Of a stretch of DNA of 64,000 nt, positions 742-14,321 are shown one piece after another (the stretch's first letter is position 1; every line of letters begins with the position of its first letter). Source of the DNA: a phage; the sequence record OZ346189.1; one strand, 5' to 3'. The notes below the pieces were generated by a model that had not been told where the DNA came from, did no database searches, and saw nothing but the letters and a program-made list of their open reading frames with translations. Position numbers and translations under genes: made by a program.

Positions 742-1428
742 ATGGCAGAGATTAAGTCGGATGTTAACCACATCCACACTCTGCCAGATTTTGTTCAGGG
801 AGGTCTTGACTACCTACCTGGAGATTTTCTGGCTGAGAAGGTTAATTTAGTCACATTCTTAACCGTATACCTTAAAAGGTTGGAGGATGTTGATAAGATG
901 CTGGTAGGTTTGGCTGAAGGAAGATTGCTTAACAATGCCAGCGGAAGATACCTTGACGAAGTTGGTAATCAACTTGGTATTCTTAGGAATGGACTTTCAG
1001 ATGCTGATTTTCGTGCCACACTAATTATTCAGCAGGCCGCAGCATCAAGGGGCGGGACTCGCGAAGATGTCATCTCCACCTTGCGACAATTGTTCGGAAG
1101 AGACAATTTCGATACGTGGAAAGGAGACAACTTCAGGTTTGACATAAATATTAGAAAAACTTGCTTTGACATATTGCAGTCTATCGATCAGATCTTAGAT
1201 ATGCTACCATTGCCTTGTCATTTGCGTCTTACAGAATCGCAAGGGCAAGCTTTTGGTTTTGAAGGGGACTCTACAGCTCTGGGCTTCGGATCAGTGTGGG
1301 AAGAAAACCAATTCGGAGTTGGTGGGCTGGCTACTTTGCTATATGTTCCTGACGTAAGACCTGATTGGGACACCACAACCATTTATTGTGAAAGTATTAC
1401 AGTAAACGCAACTAGACAGGAGGGTTAA
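742..1428 (+). CDS. hypothetical structural protein
   Basis: 228-aa ORF, tightly packed with neighbours, RBS ggcggcgaga 6 nt upstream of ATG. Confidence 0.5.
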   Translation: MAEIKSDVNHIHTLPDFVQGGLDYLPGDFLAEKVNLVTFLTVYLKRLEDVDKMLVGLAEGRLLNNASGRYLDEVGNQLGILRNGLSDADFRATLIIQQAAASRGGTREDVISTLRQLFGRDNFDTWKGDNFRFDINIRKTCFDILQSIDQILDMLPLPCHLRLTESQGQAFGFEGDSTALGFGSVWEENQFGVGGLATLLYVPDVRPDWDTTTIYCESITVNATRQEG

Positions 1429-3500
1429 TGGCAACAGCTGTTTTTAAACCTTACCGTGATTACTCTACAATGGCTGCACAGTTTCATTACCGCACAGTTC
1501 AGGATACTGCCGTTCCTGGTAGAGATTATGATCATGTTGAGGGCGATGTAACTATCCCAGTTGGGGCAACCAGTATTGAGATCCCAGTGGAAATTGTTGA
1601 CAAATTACCCAACAGGTTGCCAAGAAGCTTCTTTATGGAGTTTTCATCAAAATCTCAAGGAGTGATGATTGGAACACAAAGGGCGAAATGTACAATAGTT
1701 TCAGATGAGAATCTTGACAGGATATCTTGGGATACTGTTGAGGAGAGAATGTTTCACCCAAGATATTGGGTTACAACCACTCAGCAGACTGAAAGTACCT
1801 GTATTGTTGCAGATAACAACTGTTGTATTAACCGTTTAGTGTCAAGAACATATGGAGGTATGGCTGGGTGCATTTGGGAAACAGTTGACAAGTATGACCA
1901 TTTCGGTATTGGGTTTGATGATCACTATGAGATGAGAAACACCAAGCTTTGGTTCAGAATGTCAATAACCAACGCCAGCAACTTCTCCACTCCTGAAAAG
2001 ATGATTATGACTGTAGACCTTGTTGATGGCACAATCATCTATGTTCCTTTAGCTCAATATGCTGTCAGCATCTCAGAGGATAAAAATGTTGCAGAAATTC
2101 ATATTGATTTTGAGGACTGCGTCGGGATGGACCAGAACAACAACATGATGGGTGTTGATCCTCGGCAGGTGAGAAGGATTTTAATACCACTTATGCCTAA
2201 AGACTGGGTAAGTAATAGCACAGATCCAAGAACGGAAAATGTAGAGTGTGAGTTGCGCCTAGATCTGCTTCAGCCAGACACAGGCTGGAAAATGATGCAA
2301 CTTAATAATATCCAGGTGAGAGAGCACGACGTTGGGATCTGCACCGCATATGACGATATGTGGAACGTGTCCCCTTTAAGGGTGTTGAACAATATCAAGC
2401 GTCTGGGCTATACCGGAACCATAAACCATTATGTTGGTATGAGTCATTATTATGACTACACATGGTCAGGAACCCAATGGTCTATAAACAGAACAGGAGC
2501 GCTAAACGCTGCAGCTTATAAATGGCATGATGATTTTATGTACAATGCCAAACGACATAACTTCGACGTTATGCAATCTGTAAGTTTTGAGCTTTTCAGC
2601 GATGCCTGCCCGTTGGAATGGACCCAAAGAGACTGGAACGATAACTACGCTAAAACAGGGTATACACCTTGTAGCTACCTCCTGTCTCCAACCATTGAAG
2701 AGGGTATGAATTTCCTTACTGCAGTATTTAAGAATTTTGCATCAGCCGCTATGAGAAACAACCTGCCAGTGATTATGCAGGTTGGTGAACCGTGGTGGTG
2801 GTACAATACCGATACTCGTAGACCTTGTATTTATGATTACCCTACAAAACAGGCGTTTTATGATGAGACAGGCGAGTATGCATTAGATATTGGGACTATT
2901 GACGATCCTAAAACTGGCGGTGTTTACGATAAGTATGTAGCATTTTGTCGTGGTAAGCTTGGCGCTCGTATTGCTGCTATTTCAAAGGCAATAAAGGCAC
3001 ACGCTGCATCAGCTCAGATGACAGCTCTGCTGTTTTTCCCAACCATTATGGAAACCGAGCTTACGCAAAAGCTTAACCTTGCTGACCAATATAAAAAGGA
3101 AGCAGGTGCTCTTGATTTCTTCTGCACCGAGTGCTACGATTGGGTGATGCAGGGAGGTATTGAAAAGGCAAAAGAGTCTGTAAACATACCTATCGTTAAG
3201 TTAGGTTGGCAACCGTCTGAAATACAATACCTTGCAGGGTTCGTTCCTAGTAAAGAGCTTGCTCCGGTATATGGTTACGACCCAACTAGGAATTACCAAG
3301 AATTTTTATGGAGATGTATTTGCGGAAACATGGCAACTATAGAGTATAGATACCCTGAGGTAAAACAGTATGTGTGGGCATACCCGCAAGTAATGTCTGA
3401 CAGCATCACTGTTACCGCTAGAGATTCTACCGTGCTTCATATGGGGCAGGTTGCTCTGAAAGGGTATGTAGAAGATGTTGTCCCGCCAGACTTCTCATAA
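1428..3500 (+). CDS. large tail/baseplate-associated protein
   Basis: 690-aa ORF; ATG overlaps the upstream stop (taATGg), typical translational coupling in late operons. Confidence 0.55.
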   Translation: MATAVFKPYRDYSTMAAQFHYRTVQDTAVPGRDYDHVEGDVTIPVGATSIEIPVEIVDKLPNRLPRSFFMEFSSKSQGVMIGTQRAKCTIVSDENLDRISWDTVEERMFHPRYWVTTTQQTESTCIVADNNCCINRLVSRTYGGMAGCIWETVDKYDHFGIGFDDHYEMRNTKLWFRMSITNASNFSTPEKMIMTVDLVDGTIIYVPLAQYAVSISEDKNVAEIHIDFEDCVGMDQNNNMMGVDPRQVRRILIPLMPKDWVSNSTDPRTENVECELRLDLLQPDTGWKMMQLNNIQVREHDVGICTAYDDMWNVSPLRVLNNIKRLGYTGTINHYVGMSHYYDYTWSGTQWSINRTGALNAAAYKWHDDFMYNAKRHNFDVMQSVSFELFSDACPLEWTQRDWNDNYAKTGYTPCSYLLSPTIEEGMNFLTAVFKNFASAAMRNNLPVIMQVGEPWWWYNTDTRRPCIYDYPTKQAFYDETGEYALDIGTIDDPKTGGVYDKYVAFCRGKLGARIAAISKAIKAHAASAQMTALLFFPTIMETELTQKLNLADQYKKEAGALDFFCTECYDWVMQGGIEKAKESVNIPIVKLGWQPSEIQYLAGFVPSKELAPVYGYDPTRNYQEFLWRCICGNMATIEYRYPEVKQYVWAYPQVMSDSITVTARDSTVLHMGQVALKGYVEDVVPPDFS

Positions 3501-3512
3501 TCAGGAGATAAA

Positions 3513-4553
3513 ATGTCAAAACCTAGTTTTCCATTAGAGATTTGGGCAGAGGAGGATCAGGTTCTGCCTAACACCCACAGACAGAACAGGCTACGCCCGA
3601 TTGATGATTTGTGGAGAAAAGGTTGGGATCTTGGTCAAAAGCCCTCATGTGAAGAACTTAACTATATTTTCAATATGCTCGGAACTTGGGCAAAATACAT
3701 TGCTGACGAGCAGATCCCCGCTCAAGAAGGCCGTTATCTGGTACGTGATAATAACTTGAGTGATCTTTTGAACATTCCTGTTGCCCGTAGAAACCTTGGG
3801 ATTATTACTAAGGAAGAGGCAGACGCCAGGTATGTAAAAGTTACAGGTGATACAATGACAGGCCCATTGGGTTTGCAACGTATCAACTTTAAAGCTGCAG
3901 AGTCAGATAAGGCTTGGATAGAGACAACTATTGGCCCAGATAAGACAACTCTCGACTTTGGGTTAAGTGATAATACCGGGTCGTTTGATGATGGTGGTAC
4001 ATCTACAGTGGATGCGTTCCGTTGGAGATTCCAGCCAACTCAGCCGGATATTAATCCAGAGTTCACTTTGATGTACCTTAACGCGATCACGGCTAACCGT
4101 GCGCTGTTGAAAGTGGTAGGCAATGTTGAAGTTGTCGATAACATGAGGTGCAATAACCTTACTATCAGCAATACAGCGACATTCACCAACTGTAATGTGG
4201 CTAGTCAGTTGACGGCTGGGTCAGTGTATGTTAATGGTGGTGCAAGTTGTGACAGTATGGTTGTAAGAAGCCAGCACTGTGTTGTCGGTAACAGAAATGT
4301 GGTTCGCTCTGTGAACGGAGTGACGGCTAACGGTAACGGTGATGTAACGATCACTATCCCGCAGACAGGTGTGCAAGACATCAGAATCGGTGCAAGACTT
4401 GTGGACGGAGTTTCTGAATCTCCAATCCGCAACGGCTACGTTGTCACAGGCTGGCATTTCGGTGACAAAAAAGAGATGCGTGGTTCAACCTACTGGGCAG
4501 GACCTTTACAAAAACTTGTAAATGGTCAATGGATCACTGTTAATTATGCATAG
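3513..4553 (+). CDS. tail fibre protein, cassette 1
   Basis: 346-aa ORF; N-terminus (PLEIWAEEDQVL) and C-terminus (QKLVNGQWITVNYA) are shared with the paralogue at 5565..6611, central region divergent. Confidence 0.6.
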   Translation: MSKPSFPLEIWAEEDQVLPNTHRQNRLRPIDDLWRKGWDLGQKPSCEELNYIFNMLGTWAKYIADEQIPAQEGRYLVRDNNLSDLLNIPVARRNLGIITKEEADARYVKVTGDTMTGPLGLQRINFKAAESDKAWIETTIGPDKTTLDFGLSDNTGSFDDGGTSTVDAFRWRFQPTQPDINPEFTLMYLNAITANRALLKVVGNVEVVDNMRCNNLTISNTATFTNCNVASQLTAGSVYVNGGASCDSMVVRSQHCVVGNRNVVRSVNGVTANGNGDVTITIPQTGVQDIRIGARLVDGVSESPIRNGYVVTGWHFGDKKEMRGSTYWAGPLQKLVNGQWITVNYA

Positions 4554-4567
4554 ATCGGAGGACTAGC

Positions 4568-5152
4568 ATGAAAATACTTCAAGAGTTTAAACTTTACCAA
4601 CCGGGATCTGGCGAATACCGCACCAACAAGGAAACCAAGGAGCTGACCCCTCAAGAGGTTGAGGATTACACAGCATACACTGGGTATTTTTTACGTAATG
4701 ATGATGGCGATTGGTATGTGCAGTCACGAACATTACGACAAGAAAATCCGGGGTGTATCTTCCTACTTGTTGACGAGAAGGGAATTCTTAAGACATCTAC
4801 AGAAGAACCTGATGCCTTATGGCCTGCTCCAGGTCTTCGTGTGGTTATCGCCAAAAAAGAAGAGGTACCAGAAAACATTATGCTTCACCACGACGCTTTG
4901 CGTTTAGTTGGTGATGAATTTGTCACAGACAATGAATTCTTTGTTCAACAGGCAGAGGGTGTCATAGAGACAGAACTTGCTTGGGCTACTGCTAGAATTG
5001 GTGCCTATCAAGACATGATTGACCTTGAATATGATCTTACTGATGACCAGAAACGTAACATCAGAGATTTGAAAATGTACAGGGTAAAACTTCTTGAAAT
5101 AGATACATCTAAAGCCCCTGACATTTTCTTCCCGGAGCGACCTACCCTCTAA
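4568..5152 (+). CDS. hypothetical protein, possible tail-fibre accessory/assembly factor
   Basis: 194-aa ORF immediately downstream of the tail-fibre gene, RBS ggaggact. Confidence 0.45.
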   Translation: MKILQEFKLYQPGSGEYRTNKETKELTPQEVEDYTAYTGYFLRNDDGDWYVQSRTLRQENPGCIFLLVDEKGILKTSTEEPDALWPAPGLRVVIAKKEEVPENIMLHHDALRLVGDEFVTDNEFFVQQAEGVIETELAWATARIGAYQDMIDLEYDLTDDQKRNIRDLKMYRVKLLEIDTSKAPDIFFPERPTL

Positions 5153-5163
5153 GAGGAGGTGTT

Positions 5164-5478
5164 GTGGAGTTGGATTTGGCGGCATTGTACGGTATCTGCA
5201 TGGGTACCGTTGTCCCGATCTGTGTATGGGCTTTCAACCAGTGGCACACCAAATGGAAAGGCATTTCCAAGAGGTTGGATGAGCTGGAGAAAGACCTCAT
5301 CTTAGTGAAAAACAGTATGGTTACAAAAGATAAACTTGATTCCGTTATCGAGACCCGGTTAAGTAAGCTAGAGGCCGATATTAACGACCTTAAGCAGGAT
5401 GTCAGGACAGATGTCTCCGGTATCCGAGCTGATGTACAAAAGATTTTGCACATGCTCGTAGAGCATAGTAAAAGGTAA
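5164..5478 (+). CDS. small membrane-anchored coiled-coil protein
   Basis: 104-aa ORF, GTG start after RBS gaggaggt; hydrophobic N-terminal segment followed by heptad-like charged region. Confidence 0.4.
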   Translation: MELDLAALYGICMGTVVPICVWAFNQWHTKWKGISKRLDELEKDLILVKNSMVTKDKLDSVIETRLSKLEADINDLKQDVRTDVSGIRADVQKILHMLVEHSKR

Positions 5479-5487
5479 ACAAAGGTC

Positions 5488-5520
5488 AGAACGGAAAGGA
5501 CTCCGTTCTTGCATTTTGTT
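5488..5520 (+). terminator. rho-independent terminator
   Basis: stem agaacgg/ccgttct followed by tgcattttgtt. Confidence 0.5.
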
Positions 5521-5564
5521 CCCTAAAGTGTTAAAATAGTCCTAAGGAATTTTCTCAGGAGAAC

Positions 5565-6611
5565 GTGATGACTAAACCAGTTATCCCTCTTGATATTTGG
5601 GCCAATCAGGATGTTGTGCTTGAAAATACGGGAGAGTTGAATAAGTCTCAACCAAAAAAAGAAGAGAGATTGAAAGGTTGGGATATGACACAAAGAGTGG
5701 CATGTGAAGTTGTTAACTTTGAACTTCACATGCTTTCTGCGTGGTTGAAGCATTTAACAGAAGATGTTGTCCCAGGATGGGATAATAGATTCTTAAGGGT
5801 CACTAATAATCTAGCAGACGTTCCAGACAAAGCTGCTGCACGTCAAGTTCTCAATGTATACTCACCTGAAGAAATGGACGATCTATATGTTGACAAGTCT
5901 GGAGACATAATGACTCAGACTCAAACTTTAGGTCTTCAAAGAATCGAGTTTGCATCTGCGTCAACAGACAGTGCGGCAATATATACCACCATAACTCCAG
6001 ACAAGACGACGATGGATTTCTGGATTATGGACAACATCGGTGGTGCTGACGGCACAGACCTTGATGATCCTTCTCACCAAATAGATGGGTTCCGTTGGAG
6101 ATTTCAACCTTCTGGTGGGCAGCCTGTGTTTTCAGCTATGAAGCTCAATGCTATAACTGCCAACCGTGCAAGACTGGCTATCCAAGGAAATCTTGAATGC
6201 AACGATGCAAAAAGTTCCTCTGCAAATGCCAATGCGGTCACGATACCAAGAGCCACTGTTAATGGACAACAATCCTGCGGAAGCGCTCAAATAGGTGGAA
6301 GAGTTGATTGTAACGATGAAACCGTCAGGGGCCAATATGCAACAGTTGGTGGAAGAAACGTGGTCCGCAGGGTAAATGGTAACGGCGCAGACAGTAGCGG
6401 TAACCTTACTATCCCTATGCCTAGCAGAGGGGTTGATGATGTAAGGATAGCAAACCGTTTTAAAACCACCTACAGAGAGTCAAGAGTCTACCCTGGACAT
6501 GTGATGTGCTCTGGTAACTACGCTTATAAACACCCTTATCAAGGTGATTACTGGACAGGTGCTATCCAAAAACTTGTAAATGGTCAATGGATCACTATAT
6601 CTTATGCTTAA
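5565..6611 (+). CDS. tail fibre protein, cassette 2 (paralogue of 3513..4553)
   Basis: 348-aa ORF; conserved N- and C-terminal ends with cassette 1; identical 30-nt DNA stretch at 6567..6596 and 4509..4538. Confidence 0.6.
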   Translation: MMTKPVIPLDIWANQDVVLENTGELNKSQPKKEERLKGWDMTQRVACEVVNFELHMLSAWLKHLTEDVVPGWDNRFLRVTNNLADVPDKAAARQVLNVYSPEEMDDLYVDKSGDIMTQTQTLGLQRIEFASASTDSAAIYTTITPDKTTMDFWIMDNIGGADGTDLDDPSHQIDGFRWRFQPSGGQPVFSAMKLNAITANRARLAIQGNLECNDAKSSSANANAVTIPRATVNGQQSCGSAQIGGRVDCNDETVRGQYATVGGRNVVRRVNGNGADSSGNLTIPMPSRGVDDVRIANRFKTTYRESRVYPGHVMCSGNYAYKHPYQGDYWTGAIQKLVNGQWITISYA

Positions 6612-6622
6612 AAAGAGGGTAA

Positions 6623-6889
6623 ATGAAACTAACTCAGTTTTTATGGGGACTGGTTGCGGCATCTGATGACCCTACGAAAGTGTCCCAAACTAAGCTATGG
6701 TCGAACATAGGCATGGCGGTGATGACTGGGGTGTTTATTCATATGGGGTATAATGATACGCTTCCTGAATGGTATGCGTGGATATACGCGCCTTCAGTAG
6801 CTTGCCCCCAGCTTATTAGCAAATTCATCTCGCTCCGGTGGGGTTGCCAGCACCCTGACCACGTTAAAAACGAAGAGCAAAAAGCTTAA
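6623..6889 (+). CDS. hypothetical protein
   Basis: 88-aa ORF with RBS agagggtaa. Confidence 0.4.
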   Translation: MKLTQFLWGLVAASDDPTKVSQTKLWSNIGMAVMTGVFIHMGYNDTLPEWYAWIYAPSVACPQLISKFISLRWGCQHPDHVKNEEQKA

Positions 6890-6898
6890 GGAGAAATC

Positions 6899-8644
6899 AT
6901 GGCGCAAGACATGACAAGCTTTGAGCAGGCGGTAGATCAAGTAATTGTTGATTCTGAACGTTTGCACCTGATTGTCAACGGTAACGCTGTGGATGAAGTT
7001 GTCGTAGAGGATGGGACCACCATCCCTACGGTACGAAAAGCCATGCTTGACACCCTTTATTTTAAAACGCCACCGATCCCTTGGGCGTATGGTGCATCCA
7101 CAACAGTTTTTAACCAGCTGTACGAGTTTAAAGGGGACACAGGCCCTCAGTGGTGGTACGCTCCCGCAGCATCAAAATCTAACCCGGTTAGAATGCCAGC
7201 AGATCCTTCACAATCTCCAAACTGGAGATTATATACCGATTCTGCAGTAATGGCAAAATACTACGCAAAACTTAACAGTCCGAGGTTCGAAGGTGACCCG
7301 CGAGTACCTACGCCTCCAATGGACGACAAATCCGAGTCTATAGCAAACACAGAGTTTGTTGTTGACTATGTGGATAGCATATTTGAAGCCATGGAGGGAA
7401 TGAAAGTTACTGTAGGGTCTTTGGTGGTAAAAGGTCTTACAGAACTTGCTAACACTATAGTTGGTGGCACACTCACCTTACATGGGCCTGTTAATGGAGC
7501 AGATTCTACTGCACGCTTCAGGAACCTAATCCTCACGGCAAATACTTCTACACTTACTTTTGCGTGGAGTGATCCTAAGCATGCAGACTGGAGAAGCACA
7601 GAGCTGCAACCTCATGAAGTGTCCACCCACAGGGTTATAGCTGACACTATAACTTCTGGGAAACCAGTGGCTAATAATAACGATGTGCATTTTGATGGTC
7701 TAGGTAATAACTTTTTTGACTACGTGTACATTCGTGGTAATGCCATGAAGGCAGCAACCGAACCGACATTGCAGGTAGATGGAACCACCAGGGTTAAGAA
7801 CCTTGAGGTGACAGGCACTGTTACAGGGATAACCTACTCTGTCGATGGCACCATGATTTACCCTAGCTATATTGAAAGCACGGGGGACGCATTAATAAAT
7901 GGTGATTTAGAAGTTGGCGGATCTGTAGTTATTCGAGGTACAGTCTCTATCCAAAACATAGCTCTGAATACCCTAAGAGTCAATGAGCGTGCAACTTTTG
8001 AAGGGGAAGGGCTTACAGCCAACAAAGGTGTAATTACCGAGCTGACAACCACTACTTTAACTGCAACAACTGCAAACTCTGAAAACTGCAACGTTACCAG
8101 AAACTTGCAGGTAAATGGAGATGTTAGTTTAAACGCAGCAGGGACGGGCACCACCTACCTTCACAACCTTGAAATATCCGGCACAGTGACTGGGTGGCTG
8201 CCAGACTTCTCTAATGTCAACTTTGTTTGTAATGGCATTAACTCCAGTGGCAAGATAACCACCTCTCAAGAAATTGAGGCGGGTAAAACCATTACTGCCC
8301 CTACTTTCCACGCAGGAAAGGTAGATTTTGATTTAGAGGAGGTTGACGCGTCCAGTGGGACATGGACACCTAACGGGCAGGCCAGTATGTATGTTGTCCA
8401 CGCGAAAGGGGATTTTACAATAGGACAATGGCCTGGTACATCAGCGGAAGATAAACCTTATCCATTCACTGCGGTTATCTATGTCATTCAGGATGCTGTA
8501 GGTCACAACGTGACTTTGCACGATAAGTATGCTATCCTGTCGGCAACGCCTGTTATTAATAACAAGGCTAATAGTGTTACCTTGCTGCAATTAACATATT
8601 GTGGTGTTGGTGATATCGTAGACGTAGTAATTGCACAACGTTAA
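6899..8644 (+). CDS. tail fibre / tail spike protein
   Basis: 581-aa ORF rich in T/G/N/V repeats typical of beta-structured fibre shafts; RBS aaggagaaatc. Confidence 0.55.
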   Translation: MAQDMTSFEQAVDQVIVDSERLHLIVNGNAVDEVVVEDGTTIPTVRKAMLDTLYFKTPPIPWAYGASTTVFNQLYEFKGDTGPQWWYAPAASKSNPVRMPADPSQSPNWRLYTDSAVMAKYYAKLNSPRFEGDPRVPTPPMDDKSESIANTEFVVDYVDSIFEAMEGMKVTVGSLVVKGLTELANTIVGGTLTLHGPVNGADSTARFRNLILTANTSTLTFAWSDPKHADWRSTELQPHEVSTHRVIADTITSGKPVANNNDVHFDGLGNNFFDYVYIRGNAMKAATEPTLQVDGTTRVKNLEVTGTVTGITYSVDGTMIYPSYIESTGDALINGDLEVGGSVVIRGTVSIQNIALNTLRVNERATFEGEGLTANKGVITELTTTTLTATTANSENCNVTRNLQVNGDVSLNAAGTGTTYLHNLEISGTVTGWLPDFSNVNFVCNGINSSGKITTSQEIEAGKTITAPTFHAGKVDFDLEEVDASSGTWTPNGQASMYVVHAKGDFTIGQWPGTSAEDKPYPFTAVIYVIQDAVGHNVTLHDKYAILSATPVINNKANSVTLLQLTYCGVGDIVDVVIAQR

Positions 8645-8694: not shown

Positions 8695-10749
8695 ATGCTT
8701 CCAATCCCTTTGCTAAAACTTGGTCGTCATTTCCTCGATAAGAGGGGTGGAATTAAGGAACTTGCTGTTCTGTCATACCCAATAGACAACAGTGATGGTA
8801 CAAGCAACACAGTATCCTATGTAAATAGCTTAGCTATACTTTTTGATGATGGTCAGCTTAATATTACTGGCTATAATAGGTTCGGAGAGTGTCGGACTGG
8901 AGATCTTGATACAATAAACTATCCTAATGAGGCAGCTTGGAACGTAGACCATGTTTGGAGAGCTGACCGTGCATTTGTAATCCGCACATTCGATAATAAA
9001 TTTTTCTATATTGGTTGCACAGCTGGTCTTATCGGATCGGAGGCAGCAGGTGGAAACGATGTTTGTGTCAGAGAGTGGACACCTTTGCCGGAACAGATCG
9101 TAACAGGGTTGCATTTGGACACCCATCCTGAGAGACTTGTTGAAGTAATGGGTGGCGTAAACAATACAGTGTGGGTAATTGCTGCACCAGAGGCTGATGG
9201 TATGCTTCACCTGTACGGCTCTGGCAATAATACTTACGGCTCTCTTCATGTTGACAAAAGTCAACACGCTACTCCAGTTAAGATCGGTGAAACATCTGAA
9301 AGTCCAGAGACAGGTCCTTGGAAAAATCCAAGAATTAATTGTGAAGTTCATGACAACTCGGTTATTTTTGGTGGTCCTAACGGATTCTGGATTGCAGGTT
9401 ACGATTTCTTAAGAAATAACAGCAAAAACACACTAGTTTATCCAGCCGAGCATGTGACTCTTGACCAGTTTAAAGGCATCCCGGTGGGCGAGACATGGAA
9501 AGGGTTCATGTGTGGACCTAATGGTGCAATTATAGCCACAGAAAGGATGCACAAACCTGATGACCAGCAGCTTGTTAACGTATTCTACGGGCAAGACGTC
9601 TGGGGAGATGACACATGGCGTTCCTTAAATATCACCTACACCCATGAGGTGATAATGGCTCGTGGATACGGCACAAGTGGCATTTTCTTCAATAATGGCA
9701 CTAAACAGTATCGTGGATTCTCTCGCAACTTGTGTAATGATATTGGTGCACAATCTGCAAACAATAGCCCTAGGGCTAATTTTATCCACTATCAGGCTCT
9801 TGCTACAGCTAAATATGTTGAGCAACGCCTGCCAGTTAGCTGGACAGAGAGTGTTTATTTCCAAGGCATCCACAGGGAAGGTTTCTTAGGAACCTTTACT
9901 GTTGTTAATGGCAAACTTTGGTGGTCAGGCATCCCAAGGGGGAGTTTTGCAGGATCTAACAACCTCTTTGGCGGCAGACTTAACAGCCAAGGGTTCACAG
10001 AGATTCCGGAGAATTGGTATAAAAATGTCCCGGTAGATAGCTGGGGTATCGAAGACATCTTTGATGTCAATGGTGTGAGCAATGTTAGCAACATTTACAT
10101 CGGAGATACTGTCAAGATGAAATTGAAACCTCAGCCGGAGGGTGCTACGTTCATTATTGACAAGATTGAGTTGGTAAATGCTGCAGGCACTGTTGTTACA
10201 GATGCAAACTATCAGTTCTCCACTAACTGGAACCATGGTGGTGCTAACGAAGTTGTGGTCACCCAGTATAACCGTAACATCAACAGACGTGGTTTGTATT
10301 CTATCAAGATCACCTACCATGACAAGCATGGCACTGGAAGAACCTATACGACAAGAACTTTGAACTGGAACACTATAGTTCCTGCGTACCCGTCCAACGG
10401 CAAGTGGCATACCGTTGGTAGAAACAAGCAGTTCCATGTTAACGATACTGTATACTTTGGGCTGAATGGGACCCAGCCTGCAGTAGAAGGGGATACATCG
10501 TATATGGTCAGACTCCACAGAATGGATGCTGGATCAGTCACTTATGATGTGACCCAAGAGATCTACGATCAAAGACGTGCCACGTATGACAATATTGTAA
10601 AAACACAAGCCTTGTGGGAGTTCAATCCTAATGGCAAGGGTGGTAAAATGTTGCAGGTTAATGAGCAGAACGGAACGTCGTTGACTGTTCACGAACACCC
10701 AGACCCTTGGCCTGATCCTGGAAACCTCACCCGGGAGCTCGTACACTGA
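8695..10749 (+). CDS. hypothetical structural protein
   Basis: 684-aa ORF in the late module, RBS tctggagaacacaATG. Confidence 0.5.
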   Translation: MLPIPLLKLGRHFLDKRGGIKELAVLSYPIDNSDGTSNTVSYVNSLAILFDDGQLNITGYNRFGECRTGDLDTINYPNEAAWNVDHVWRADRAFVIRTFDNKFFYIGCTAGLIGSEAAGGNDVCVREWTPLPEQIVTGLHLDTHPERLVEVMGGVNNTVWVIAAPEADGMLHLYGSGNNTYGSLHVDKSQHATPVKIGETSESPETGPWKNPRINCEVHDNSVIFGGPNGFWIAGYDFLRNNSKNTLVYPAEHVTLDQFKGIPVGETWKGFMCGPNGAIIATERMHKPDDQQLVNVFYGQDVWGDDTWRSLNITYTHEVIMARGYGTSGIFFNNGTKQYRGFSRNLCNDIGAQSANNSPRANFIHYQALATAKYVEQRLPVSWTESVYFQGIHREGFLGTFTVVNGKLWWSGIPRGSFAGSNNLFGGRLNSQGFTEIPENWYKNVPVDSWGIEDIFDVNGVSNVSNIYIGDTVKMKLKPQPEGATFIIDKIELVNAAGTVVTDANYQFSTNWNHGGANEVVVTQYNRNINRRGLYSIKITYHDKHGTGRTYTTRTLNWNTIVPAYPSNGKWHTVGRNKQFHVNDTVYFGLNGTQPAVEGDTSYMVRLHRMDAGSVTYDVTQEIYDQRRATYDNIVKTQALWEFNPNGKGGKMLQVNEQNGTSLTVHEHPDPWPDPGNLTRELVH

Positions 10750-10910
10750 AAATTGTCAGCCATGATGCAGGATATTTCGGAATACGCTGGGAAGCTACAG
10801 TAAGATATGTCGACGGGACAACAAACAACATAGGGATTACACTTGGCGGCACTAGTGAAGATAACTCGCTGAAAATTGCCTACACGCCCAGAGGTATCTC
10901 TATTGATAGT

Positions 10911-13900
10911 ATGGATGTTGTTCGCAATGGCTACGGCGATGTGAATGTCAAAGTTACTCTTGGCGAACATCTTGGTGGGGAAAGGATCATCATGTATGCC
11001 TTTGATCATGATCCACGCACCAATGGAACTTATGCAAATCAGGCATGGAGTTACCTGATAAATGCACCTGAGCCGAATACTAAAGAGTTCTACTATGGTA
11101 TGAAGCGAGATGTGTGCAAGAAAACAGGAACACATGACTGGATTGCTATCTGCGTTAAAGATGAGCGCACAGCTTGGGATGAGCCTGTTAACAGATGGTT
11201 CATAGGTATTCCTACCAGAAGTGATAAGTATGTCGCAGAATATATTGTATGCATGGGCGGTACCAACCTAAACATGTGTTGGAACGAAGATGTAAACAAA
11301 TACTCTGATTATGACTATATGAGGGATTACTCTTGTAATTTGTGGTTTAACCAAACTACAGGTTACCCTCCAAGACAGGCGAGAGTAAACCCTGCAATCT
11401 TCACAGACACGCAGGTTTTCTTGACAAAACAGGCCAACGAGGTTCAGACCTTCAAGAATAAATACGATCCTAACAAGTGGTTCTACAACTGTTACGGCGC
11501 ATTTTTCTGGGGACCTGGTGAGTTACCTGGTGGGGGATCTTGCTTGAATGAGGCAACTTACGCAAGTGACTACATCATGGGGCAGGTCAAGAAGTATAAG
11601 ATAATCCCCGGTCCTGAGACTTTGGGCAATGCCGTTGACCCTTATATCATCATGACTGCACTGAGATCAAACATGGATGGGACATCCATGTCCATGCAAA
11701 TTCCGGTAACAAGCGGATACAAACGTGTTGTGATGATCATTAAGTGCGACCTGATAGGTAAACAAGTTCTTGCAGAAAACGGGACATCCACACATCCTTT
11801 TGAGATCGCTCTGCACTATCAGTTTGCTGACTCACCTTTTGCAGGGGATAAGAGAATATCTGATACAGACGCACAGCGTTGTAAGAAAGTATTGTTGGGT
11901 GCAGGTTGGTGGTGGTATGAGTTTGATTTAACAGACAAATTCACCGACACGTCTAAAGTTGTAACAGGACTTCGTCTAGACCTTGGCGAGAACATGCACA
12001 AAGCTGTTTGTGATGGCACCTATGGTGACCCTACAATATACCTAAAATATGTTTCTTTTGAGCATCCGGAAGATGTTGTCTACGGTCCAAAACTGAGATT
12101 GTTTGGCAGCTGGATTGCAAAAGATAGGGTAGGCATGGGTAAGAAGGTAAGAGGGCTCTTGGTTGATGCAGGAACAGAAGACATGCTGGTTAATGCAGTG
12201 TGGCCTGAATTACCTGGGACTCAGTGGGACAACTCAGCCAAATCTATAAACTGGTTTAACATTCATAGGGCCATGTGGACCACTAACTGCTACTTGTGGA
12301 GAGAGCTTAACGATCAGGCCTTTGGATTCAGCGATGGTAGAAGGATGGCGATCATTTGCTGGACAACACTGCAAAGATGTTATGACCATGACTATGAGAT
12401 TGGGGGCAGGGCATGGAAAAATATCAGGGATAGAATCATAACCAATTTTGCAGACGACAACGGTGGTGGAGCACATAACTTTGGCACAAGCCGACTCATC
12501 CATTTGAACGGATCCTCAGCCTACAAGAAAGAAGGTTACTCTGGGTCTATGATCGAGTGGGGTCTGGTGAAAGATGCTCGCGTATTGATGGGCCAGCAAC
12601 TTGCTGCCGCAATAGGTCCCAGCGCAGTGCAGTCGGTTAAACCAGCGTGGTTCGATATTCCATTGTGGTCACCCGGAACACCGGGAACTGCTGCAATCAA
12701 CCCTACCACTGGGGATCTAGAAATCTCCTGGGAGGACTTGAAGCAGGTCGGTGGTTGGGACAAAACAGGGTACCAGGTTCAGTGGTGGAGAGCTGATGGA
12801 TCTTTAGCTGCTGATGAGTTTGTTAAGGACAATTTCTACACTATGTCCTCTGCAAAAGCACAGCAATTATTTGGTCAGGCAACTCCGTCAACGATCACCA
12901 TGTCTATGTGCTGTAAAGACAACAGGACTGGAGCTTTGGGGCCAAGGGTTGCTAAAGTTTTCTCAGGTATTAAATGGAATCTACCTGTCCAAAGTATTTC
13001 ATGGAAGCAAATAGGTGATAACAAGCTGCTGGTTACCCCTGCCTGTCAGTTCAACGCAACTCTTAACGTTGATCCTGCTGTTGCGGCAAACTCAGCTAAA
13101 GCTTCTGACTTCTCTGTGTCTAACACTGCTATGGCAGATGTGAGGAAGATTGACACACTGAACGCCAGAATTACCTGTAAAAACACTTATGGCACATTCC
13201 AAATCATCAACAACTTCACAGATGCTGATTCTAAGGTAGTAAGGACAGCAAGCCAGACTCTGAGTTTAGGGACTCTGGCCTATGCGGCCCTGATCACCGA
13301 ACAGTCGGCAACACTCCAAGGAGGCGGTGTAGGCAAGTCCATTGCAACACCTGTGTGGAAGCCAAATGAGTGGGTTGTGTTTGATTTGACTGTGGACTTC
13401 TCCAGCGATAATAACTGGACATGGGTAAGGAATTGTTTGTCACAATTGATGGGCGGTCCAAGCTCCGTTAGTGATAGTCACGACTCTACTGACCCGAGTG
13501 TGTTCCAGGTAGGTAAAACTCACCCAGAGACTGGAGAAACGTTGCCTGACAGGAAGTATGCGTTGGTTTGCATCTCTTACGGGAAGGCAGATGTCACATT
13601 CTCAGGGACACACACTTATAACGGAACTTACAACTTCTCAAGGAAGTATAGTCTCAAAGCAGGGAACATTATAGACGAGGTCGGTGTGCTGTATAATCCG
13701 GGCAACGGCATAGGGATTGTGGGCGGTAAACTGCAGATGCAGGAACCTTCTATCACCCCTTCCAACGTATCCGGGATTAGAAAGACTTGGGAAAGTAGTA
13801 ATACCAACATTGCAACAGTGGATGCCACCACAGGGCTGGTAACATTTAAAGCTACTGGGAATGTCACCATAAAGTTTGTAGTTAGAGATGATGCAGGCCG

Positions 13901-14321
13901 CAAAACGTCTTCAACATCGTTTACTGTCAGACAGATGGCACCTCAGTGGTTTATTTGGGAAGGAAATCCTCTTGACGGGGCTTACCCTAGACCTGCAGGA
14001 ACGTCCAATATGAGGGTCTTTACCGGTCCGGTCATGAACAATCCGACCACAACCACCAACCCTACATTTTTTGGTGCTTACATACCTGAAATTATTGGCC
14101 TACCAAGGAACCAGATACAACTGCTTTTCGGAGCAGGTGTTGATGGTCTAGCCACTTTTGGGTACAGTGACAACATTGATGCAGCCAGAAGCTCGGGTTG
14201 GATTGGATTTAAGTTTCAGTGGAACCCTGGTGGTAGAACATTAGGTGTTGCAAGCATAGGTGTTATGCTACCTGGTAACCAGCAATACCATCTCGAAGCT
14301 TATACAAACTTCCCTAGTTAA
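10911..14321 (+). CDS. large tail-associated protein with bacterial Ig-like (Big_2-type) domain
   Basis: 1136-aa ORF; segment VSGIRKTWESSNTNIATVDATTGLVTFKATGNVTIKFVV fits the Big_2 pattern; last gene before a strong terminator. Confidence 0.55.
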   Translation: MDVVRNGYGDVNVKVTLGEHLGGERIIMYAFDHDPRTNGTYANQAWSYLINAPEPNTKEFYYGMKRDVCKKTGTHDWIAICVKDERTAWDEPVNRWFIGIPTRSDKYVAEYIVCMGGTNLNMCWNEDVNKYSDYDYMRDYSCNLWFNQTTGYPPRQARVNPAIFTDTQVFLTKQANEVQTFKNKYDPNKWFYNCYGAFFWGPGELPGGGSCLNEATYASDYIMGQVKKYKIIPGPETLGNAVDPYIIMTALRSNMDGTSMSMQIPVTSGYKRVVMIIKCDLIGKQVLAENGTSTHPFEIALHYQFADSPFAGDKRISDTDAQRCKKVLLGAGWWWYEFDLTDKFTDTSKVVTGLRLDLGENMHKAVCDGTYGDPTIYLKYVSFEHPEDVVYGPKLRLFGSWIAKDRVGMGKKVRGLLVDAGTEDMLVNAVWPELPGTQWDNSAKSINWFNIHRAMWTTNCYLWRELNDQAFGFSDGRRMAIICWTTLQRCYDHDYEIGGRAWKNIRDRIITNFADDNGGGAHNFGTSRLIHLNGSSAYKKEGYSGSMIEWGLVKDARVLMGQQLAAAIGPSAVQSVKPAWFDIPLWSPGTPGTAAINPTTGDLEISWEDLKQVGGWDKTGYQVQWWRADGSLAADEFVKDNFYTMSSAKAQQLFGQATPSTITMSMCCKDNRTGALGPRVAKVFSGIKWNLPVQSISWKQIGDNKLLVTPACQFNATLNVDPAVAANSAKASDFSVSNTAMADVRKIDTLNARITCKNTYGTFQIINNFTDADSKVVRTASQTLSLGTLAYAALITEQSATLQGGGVGKSIATPVWKPNEWVVFDLTVDFSSDNNWTWVRNCLSQLMGGPSSVSDSHDSTDPSVFQVGKTHPETGETLPDRKYALVCISYGKADVTFSGTHTYNGTYNFSRKYSLKAGNIIDEVGVLYNPGNGIGIVGGKLQMQEPSITPSNVSGIRKTWESSNTNIATVDATTGLVTFKATGNVTIKFVVRDDAGRKTSSTSFTVRQMAPQWFIWEGNPLDGAYPRPAGTSNMRVFTGPVMNNPTTTTNPTFFGAYIPEIIGLPRNQIQLLFGAGVDGLATFGYSDNIDAARSSGWIGFKFQWNPGGRTLGVASIGVMLPGNQQYHLEAYTNFPS

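Follow-up and report, generated by a model that had tools for sequence, protein, structure and literature searches.

The short-tail-fibre locus of an rV5-like phage: two paralogous fibres, one chaperone and a 30-nt 3' identity most likely due to lineage-specific gene conversion

Paralogous short tail fibres encoded in a single locus are a described trait of rV5-like phages. In rV5, gp30 (347 amino acids, aa) and gp33 were reported as paralogues with 42.3% identity, were found by HHpred to be similar to T4 gp12, and were proposed to recognise two chemotypes of lipopolysaccharide (LPS), while the total virion proteome of the phage included “tail fibre proteins (gp30, 32, 33, 41 and 43)” (Kropinski 2013, Virol J 10:76; PMC3606486). 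For the genus Vequintavirus, a pair of paralogous short tail fibres with a chaperone was later recognised as homologous to the locus of phi92-like phages and ultimately to Mu GpS/GpU; the fibre paralogues were without considerable allelic variation, and the LPS core was needed by all tested Vequintavirinae, with waaC and waaG mutants being resistant (Maffei 2021, PLoS Biol, S5D Fig; PMC8594841). Here we analyzed such a locus in a 64,000-nucleotide (nt) stretch of phage DNA (sequence record OZ346189.1; the whole stretch is called the window below), where an initial annotation, made from the sequence alone, had noticed two fibre genes between positions 3513 and 6611 that share an exact 30-nt sequence near their 3' ends.

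The 3.6 kb surrounding both fibre genes were 99.8% identical to Escherichia phage JohannBauhin (BASEL Bas53), whose annotation carries “short tail fiber protein” twice with “tail fiber chaperone” in between, and 94-99% identical to 117 GenBank records of the genus Vequintavirus (rV5-like myoviruses). The locus shared gene order, gene sizes and terminator with that of rV5, at ~98% DNA identity. We classify the window as a Vequintavirus, i.e., an rV5-like E. coli phage. Its locus is the same as that of rV5 (gp33/gp32/gp30) and of the BASEL Vequintavirus phages, with DNA 98.4-99.8% identical and nothing substantive differing, and the dual short-tail-fibre arrangement of this group is knowledge published in 2013. 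The rV5 and BASEL papers cited here mention neither the 30-nt identity of the 3' ends nor its decay by lineage; a likely micro gene conversion at these ends is the only new detail, and it is of modest interest. Overall, we consider it probable that the locus is a Vequintavirus dual short-tail-fibre module with a shared chaperone, in which the 30-nt identity is a by-product of gene conversion.

The features of the locus in the window are:

3513-4553, + strand: STF1, a short tail fibre (346 aa), orthologue of rV5 gp33 and bas53_0034, named after the JohannBauhin annotation
4491-4552, + strand: 3' tract of STF1 (62 nt), holding the 30-mer at 4509-4538; 84% identity to 6549-6610
4568-5152, + strand: TFA, a tail fibre assembly chaperone (194 aa), orthologue of rV5 gp32, with a Caudo_TAP domain
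5164-5478, + strand: gp31 orthologue (104 aa) with a predicted N-terminal transmembrane segment and coiled coil; phrog_5345, unknown function
5488-5519, + strand: predicted intrinsic terminator closing the STF1-TFA-gp31 unit (terminator scan, fold, compensatory stem change)
5529-5538, + strand: candidate late promoter TGTTAAAATA, 5' of STF2; 9/10 match to the rV5 late-gene motif
5568-6611, + strand: STF2, the second short tail fibre (347 aa), orthologue of rV5 gp30 and bas53_0037
6549-6610, + strand: 3' tract of STF2 (62 nt), holding the 30-mer at 6567-6596; counterpart of 4491-4552
6623-6889, + strand: gp29 orthologue, an 88-aa membrane protein; phrog_1322, 52% identical to Av05_104
6899-8644: gp28 orthologue, a 581-aa fibre (by rV5 gene order)

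Both fibre open reading frames (ORFs) claimed by the initial annotation were present in the window and on the same strand. The second had been started at GTG 5565; the ORF itself stood, but not this start codon, as GTG 5565 is GCG in rV5 and JES2013 and all annotations begin at ATG 5568, which sits seven bases downstream of AGGAG. Translation of STF2 most likely begins at ATG 5568.

The 30-nt identity was likewise exact at both claimed positions: CAAAAACTTGTAAATGGTCAATGGATCACT occurred at 4509-4538 and at 6567-6596, inside the two 62-nt tracts, and the second-longest exact run between the STF1 and STF2 genes was 15 nt. Further copies were not found anywhere in the 64 kb even when 3 mismatches were allowed (0 expected), and the idea of a dispersed motif was dropped since the window holds just two copies. 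The identity goes beyond amino-acid constraint alone: i) in the encoded peptide, QKLVNGQWIT, the codons were identical at 9/9 degenerate residues (P ~1.2e-4 under the codon usage of neighbouring structural genes); ii) among degenerate residues identical in both proteins, identical codons were used at 13/15 of the last 15 vs 40/127 elsewhere (Fisher p=5e-5, comparing the last 29 codons with the remainder of the gene pair); iii) a run-length permutation gave p=0.003 for a run of 30 nt.

Both copies were then read in 17 relatives besides the window; five IMG/VR loci, all close relatives, added little diversity. Identity of 30/30 was kept in 7/17 (rV5, JohannBauhin, MiataMamis, pangalan, ECP2309, Aya and IMG_13903), and 1-4 mismatches were present in the other 10/17, where the longest runs were 14-24 nt. 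Specifically, the two 30-mers differed at 2-3 positions in FV3, HMD-6 and B9-1 (longest run 22 nt), at 2-4 positions in YP-6, IMG_45988, BP9, ECP26 and S127 (runs of 14-15 nt) and at 2 positions each in JES2013 and IMG_10279. Variation among relatives fell at positions 3, 6, 7, 15 and 30 of the 30-mer, including an L to F change in FV3-type STF2. A strong excess of codon identity at the 3' end was seen in rV5 (p=3e-5) and Aya (2e-3), and little or none in FV3 and YP-6 (0.09-0.23), suggesting that the 30-nt identity is lineage-specific and not a universal DNA constraint. Such a pattern is expected of a recent homogenisation within one lineage, and not of a DNA element under selection everywhere.

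The pattern of variants gave hints in the same direction. In ECP2309 and Aya, STF1 and STF2 alike had AAC for AAT, a synonymous change, so that 30/30 was preserved. Moreover, at the sites in the last 62 nt where rV5-type and FV3-type STF2 differ, STF1 matched the rV5-type allele by 5:1 or 5:0, whereas outside these 62 nt the ratio was about even. BP9 combined an rV5-type STF1 with an FV3-type STF2, and thus recombination between co-infecting phages clearly occurs. Given the codon excess, its restriction by lineage and these suggestive hints, the 30-nt identity is most likely a lineage-specific micro gene-conversion patch and not a selected homology arm. A further proposal, that recurrent intragenomic gene conversion of ~30 nt keeps the chaperone-recognition strand identical and thereby lets a single Tfa-type chaperone act on both divergent tips, is offered only tentatively, and we doubt it more than we believe it.

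What the shared 3' end encodes became apparent from comparison of the two fibres. STF1 and STF2 aligned over their full length with 43% amino-acid identity (E=5e-94; 52% nucleotide identity), and both matched phrog_4465 throughout (STF1 1-346, E=2e-171; STF2 1-347, E=5e-166). In a sliding identity profile the most conserved block was the central shaft (alignment columns ~111-210, 45-65% identity), and columns ~51-100 and ~211-330 were the most divergent (20-35%). The initial annotation had pictured conserved ends around a variable, receptor-binding centre; the profile reverses this, the centre being the best-conserved part, and the receptor-binding tip is placed at the C-terminus instead because the C-terminus of STF1 (residues 286-343) is homologous to residues 440-501 of the Mu tail fibre S (PDB 5YVQ, 5yvq_A; E=2e-6). 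At the other end, STF1 1-108 matched residues 1-111 of the phiTE short tail fibre (9cuy_c; PDB 9CUY/9MJN; E=1e-19), and STF2 1-83 matched the same protein (E=1e-9). A terminal strand motif, P-[LIV]-Q-[KY]-x-[IV]-N-G-x-W, ends both Mu S (RPVQKNINGTWYNV) and Mu S' (RPIQYCINGTWYN), and the same motif was found in phiTE (PIQKKVNGVWVTI) and in every orthologue examined. QKLVNGQWIT can be read as this terminal beta-strand motif, a signature of the Mu-S-type tip class, and the two fibres as structural homologues, by prediction, of baseplate-docked, Mu-S-type trimeric fibres. Through their different tips, the phage would probably have two specificities for a terminal receptor on the LPS core.

The two fibres differed in their distance from relatives. 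STF1 was closer than STF2 to the single-copy orthologues of other genera (42-48% vs 37-39% identity), and its last ~57 residues were ~59% identical to the tips of phi92-like phages (60% for the phi92-like short tail fibre) and Rosemountvirus, against 34% between the STF2 tip and the Rosemountvirus tip. Between genomes, 199 sites were variable in STF2 vs 126 in STF1 (vB_Eco_Alma being left out of these counts). In pangalan, STF2 (2456-3490 of the stretch compared) is shorter by 9 nt, i.e., 3 codons (1035 vs 1044 nt), through an in-frame indel seen in the second fibre only. Salmonella phage SE13 (Rosemountvirus, a 52-kb myovirus; 1352-3745 of the stretch compared) has a fibre that ends in 58 residues with 59% identity to the STF1 tip, and two different TFA genes (gp46 and gp47) follow it; SE13 has one tip and two chaperones, the opposite of the window with its two tips and one chaperone.

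The sole chaperone gene of the locus adjoins the 3' end of STF1, while the gene after STF2 encodes the 88-aa membrane protein. The chaperone (4568-5152) has a C-terminal Pfam Caudo_TAP domain (PF02413, E=8.5e-12) and matched phrog_136 (E=2e-36), and its identity to the TFAs encoded by Av-05, NINP13076 and PaulScherrer was 30-33%; a PDB sequence search for it returned nothing meaningful, a match to a complement receptor being spurious. The downstream accessory genes mentioned in the initial annotation are this chaperone and the 104-aa ORF with its predicted transmembrane segment and coiled coil. A gp31-like ORF is kept 3' of TFA in Av-05, GAP31, NINP13076 and P8734, and the annotations of Av-05 and GAP31 call it a membrane protein. 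In Mu, the TFA attaches to the distal part of the fibre and is still there in the virion, as summarised in PMC9608196, and the presence of gp32 in rV5 virions agrees with a Mu-type chaperone that stays on the fibre. By analogy with Mu, and given gp32 in rV5 virions, gp32 would bind the distal tip of each fibre. It would fold both fibres via the shared terminal strand, and the identity of QKLVNGQWIT in the two is likely explained by the need for a single chaperone, gp32, to fold both.

Published proteomics bears directly on whether both fibres are used. The dual receptor-binding protein system suggested by the initial annotation is borne out to the extent that gp30 and gp33 are both in the rV5 virion proteome, and the virion proteomics that it had called for exists as mass spectrometry of rV5, which shows both paralogues and the chaperone gp32 (PMC3606486). 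The contrary outcome, with one product absent from virions and its gene a decaying pseudogene, was not what was found: both products were detected in rV5 virions and both genes are intact, in the window as in every complete relative fetched except vB_Eco_Alma. In vB_Eco_Alma (401-2041 of the stretch compared), STF1 and the chaperone are each cut into two ORFs by frameshifts, and there is a 1-nt insertion just 5' of the STF1 30-mer; these frameshifts are likely an assembly error.

The initial annotation proposed the 30-nt repeat as a homology arm for cassette exchange, with a recombination-driven host-range switch as one possibility. Could this direct repeat be an arm selected for programmed or frequent exchange, in the manner of the Mu G segment or of tail-fibre shufflons? 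The repeat is exact and lies at equivalent positions of two fibre genes homologous to Mu S, whose own locus is a known invertible switch, and the locus is mosaic between lineages, as in BP9. However, a crossover between direct repeats would delete and not swap: it would remove 2,058 bp, and with them gp31, most of STF2 and the one chaperone gene present, so that a single hybrid fibre remained. Comparison with relatives, another check named in the initial annotation, showed the two-fibre locus kept but no alternative cassette arrangements, with neither deletions nor chimeras at the locus among the 117 relatives: all 114/114 full-length GenBank matches were collinear and the 3 short ones ended at contig or record ends. 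These three (ECO121 2-1-1, EC22.5-2 and PDX) had appeared as low-coverage matches in “2 pieces”, because the 62-nt tract cross-matches, and were rejected as deletions or chimeras after blastn showed them to be collinear up to the contig or record end. Furthermore, FV3-like phages keep the locus though the repeat is eroded to runs of 14-22 nt, and in their genomes the 30-mer drifts at synonymous sites. An inversion system like that of Mu was also discarded, as both genes are complete on the + strand and neither useful inverted repeats nor a Gin homologue were found: inverted repeats in 3000-7200 were only 14-18 nt long, 78-86% complementary and not flanking the genes, and tblastn of Mu Gin against the 64 kb gave a best match of 38 aa (E=0.048), with no Gin-like invertase. 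With direct repeats, collinear relatives and no invertase, we give the switch hardly any credence.

A nucleotide-level DNA or RNA signal at both 3' ends, e.g., a regulatory or translational-coupling element, would account for synonymous sites being identical well above chance and for a 14-nt core, GGTCAATGGATCAC, that was constant in all genomes sampled but one (IMG_2051, in STF2). On the other hand, the two copies have differing 3' contexts (TFA after STF1, the gp29 membrane protein after STF2), relatives vary at five positions of the 30-mer including the L to F change, single-copy orthologues encode the motif with other codons, and the sequence is found nowhere else in the window, all of which makes such a signal very unlikely. 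Coincidence, with a constrained 10-residue peptide plus codon preference and no recombination, is helped by the conservation of the peptide motif across the whole Mu-S-type tip class and by the loss of significance of the synonymous excess in FV3-like genomes, yet we regard it as unlikely: the agreement of nine degenerate codons is improbable at the local codon usage, several non-preferred codons are among them (GTA 24%, ACT 30%, ATC 33%), the excess extends to 13/15 of the last identical residues, and two genomes carry a derived synonymous variant in both copies. That one fibre gene is instead a redundant or decaying copy contributing nothing to the virion is in keeping with STF2 lacking its own chaperone gene, having a divergent docking motif and being the more variable gene between genomes; but both ORFs are intact in all complete relatives fetched except vB_Eco_Alma, the differences inspected in the 3' region between genomes were almost all synonymous, and gp30 and gp33 both occur in the rV5 virion proteome, so there is next to no chance of this being the case.

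The reading preferred here, two functional fibres with a shared chaperone and a gene-conversion patch at their 3' ends, has several points weighing against it: i) STF2 had no direct match to Mu S at E<=1 in the PDB sequence search, and behind the assignment of its tip stand only its full-length homology to STF1 and the terminal motif; ii) the docking motif RPIDDLW.KGWD, kept in STF1, in all orthologues and in phiTE, is absent from STF2, which may dock at a site other than that of STF1; iii) all tested Vequintavirinae depend on a single common receptor part, the LPS core (PMC8594841); iv) the evidence for gene conversion is statistical, comes from ~17 genomes and consists partly of one recurrently polymorphic site (AAT/AAC), whose sharing between copies could reflect parallel mutation or patchy recombination between co-infecting phages; v) the 5:1 skew in allele sharing is by itself not significant.

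The second fibre gene is restricted to one genus. Two STF copies were found in Vequintavirus only, whereas Avunavirus (Av-05), Seunavirus (GAP31 and NINP13076), Klebsiella relatives (P8734), Erwinia phages and Justusliebigvirus (phi92-like) have one. In Av-05, GAP31, NINP13076 and P8734 the order is STF, TFA, then ORFs of 104 aa, 157 aa and ~88 aa, then the 581-aa-type fibre, and in Av-05 and GAP31 the 157-aa and ~88-aa ORFs carry membrane-protein annotation. Three small membrane proteins lie inside the tail-fibre module of these single-copy relatives. STF2, the terminator and the promoter-like region fill the slot that in the single-copy relatives is held by the 157-aa ORF with its multiple transmembrane segments (at 4449-4922, 4461-4934, 4497-4970 and 4338-4811 of the stretches compared, for the set of Av-05, GAP31, NINP13076 and P8734); no homologue of this ORF was present in the 64-kb window. 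A foreign donor of STF2 was sought by tblastn against 50,697 phage records and rejected, as nothing was closer than STF1 (43%) or GAP31 (39%). Because no record is closer to STF2 than STF1, an old duplication within the lineage is the simplest origin: the STF gene would have been duplicated without its chaperone and inserted downstream as a late unit of its own, after which its tip diverged.

The STF1-TFA-gp31 unit and STF2 appear to be transcribed separately. The initial annotation had given the first cassette its own terminator, in which it was right: the terminator scan and folding returned a hairpin at 5488-5509 followed by a T-tract (dG -17.5 kcal/mol, z=-3.45), and in FV3-type relatives one stem pair has changed from A-U to C-G in a compensatory manner, with a G-U intermediate in ECP26. 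Between this terminator and STF2, TGTTAAAATA at 5529-5538 matches 9/10 positions of the motif TggTAaAAtA, which Kropinski 2013 found upstream of rV5 late genes (PMC3606486). It lies 30 nt upstream of STF2 and is invariant in 16 relatives aligned; one-mismatch matches to the motif numbered 15 in the window vs 6.7 expected. STF2 thus appears to have its own late promoter, with TGTTAAAATA as the candidate.

Among described systems, phage Mu is like the locus in several respects: the STF1 tip is homologous to S, the terminal motif (PxQ[KY]x[IV]NGxW) is common to S and S', the S/U pair has an adjacent chaperone with the TFA C-terminal domain, the chaperone is found in virions, and each genome encodes two fibre tips. 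It differs in that Mu expresses one fibre at a time, via Gin inversion between inverted repeats, and has a shared constant N-terminal part with a dedicated chaperone per tip, whereas the window has two complete same-strand genes with one chaperone, and both fibres are in rV5 virions. The phiTE short tail fibre and phi92 fibre III (gp147) have a homologous N-terminal docking domain and form downward-pointing trimers on the outer wedge, but each phage has a single short tail fibre gene, and the fibre of the flagellotropic phage phiTE is long (554 aa), coiled-coil and Ig-rich. In phi92, the single homologue of the window's STFs, gp147 (by tblastn against the phage collection), forms fibre III as six downward trimers on the C-terminal domain of the wedge protein gp145 and is proposed to bind irreversibly (PMC13450770). 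T4 gp12 is alike by functional analogy, as a baseplate-attached trimer with proposed irreversible binding to the LPS core, although T4 has a single gp12 gene and the PDB searches returned no sequence-level match of STF1 or STF2 to gp12 structures. T4 uses the general chaperone gp57A, not a Tfa-type protein.

Other parts of the window gave observations on neighbouring fibre genes and on the database records. Directly 5' of STF1, a 690-aa protein (1428-3500) carries Calx-beta, NCTSP_N and NCTSP TIM-barrel domains (E=4e-80) and is by its domains an N4 gp65-like non-contractile tail sheath protein; its gene is inserted between the wedge genes and STF1 in Vequintavirus, an arrangement in which phi92-like phages differ. 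The equivalent fibre has been tied to the N4 tail-sheath receptor-binding protein (RBP) by Maffei 2021 (PMC8594841) and a 2026 preprint, and according to the latter the NGR polysaccharide RBP is that N4-tail-sheath-like fibre. Further downstream, the large lateral tail fibre gene (8695-14321) is present as two ORFs of 684 aa and 1136 aa, with a frame change near 10727-10750 and the break near 10727-10910. In JohannBauhin it is one ORF of 1,878 aa (bas53_0040, 'with intimin domain'); the region is 89% identical between the two, which fits the known allelic variability of that fibre. The two-ORF state might stem from an error in sequencing, from a genuine pseudogene or from a frameshift site. 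Finally, 16-21 GenBank records named 'Campylobacter phage' (MG0656xx, host Campylobacter jejuni) were 98-99% identical to E. coli Vequintaviruses at this locus, which looks like mislabelling or contamination rather than a true host jump.

Taken together, the locus can be modelled as follows. STF1 (gp33) would be orthologous, by position, to the one short tail fibre that related genera possess, and be followed by one Mu-U/lambda-Tfa-type chaperone (gp32), the small gp31 and a terminator, and STF2 (gp30) would be a second, older and more divergent paralogue with an apparent late promoter of its own. Both fibres would be assembled into virions, as the published proteomics indicates, each as a trimer that docks on the baseplate wedge by its N-terminal domain and, beyond the shaft, ends in a C-terminal tip of the Mu S type for the LPS core, and with its differing tips the phage would carry two terminal-receptor specificities. 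The last beta-strand, QKLVNGQWIT, may be kept identical so that the single gp32 can fold both fibres. A short gene-conversion or recombination patch would then have arisen between the 3' ends in the rV5/slur16-type lineage and been tolerated as the peptide is constrained, making the 30-nt identity a putative by-product of concerted evolution and not a selected arm.

As a near-identical member of a group described since 2013, the window has little significance beyond bookkeeping, although rV5-like phages are a therapeutically popular group. For phage engineering, the conserved terminal strand and the single chaperone suggest retaining the QKLVNGQWIT end in any tip that is grafted onto one or the other fibre, and the 30-nt repeat is a place where short-read assemblers and recombineering designs can mis-join both genes. 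If true, recurrent micro conversion between the two fibre genes would represent concerted evolution on a small scale, with the reliance of both fibres on one chaperone as its driver.

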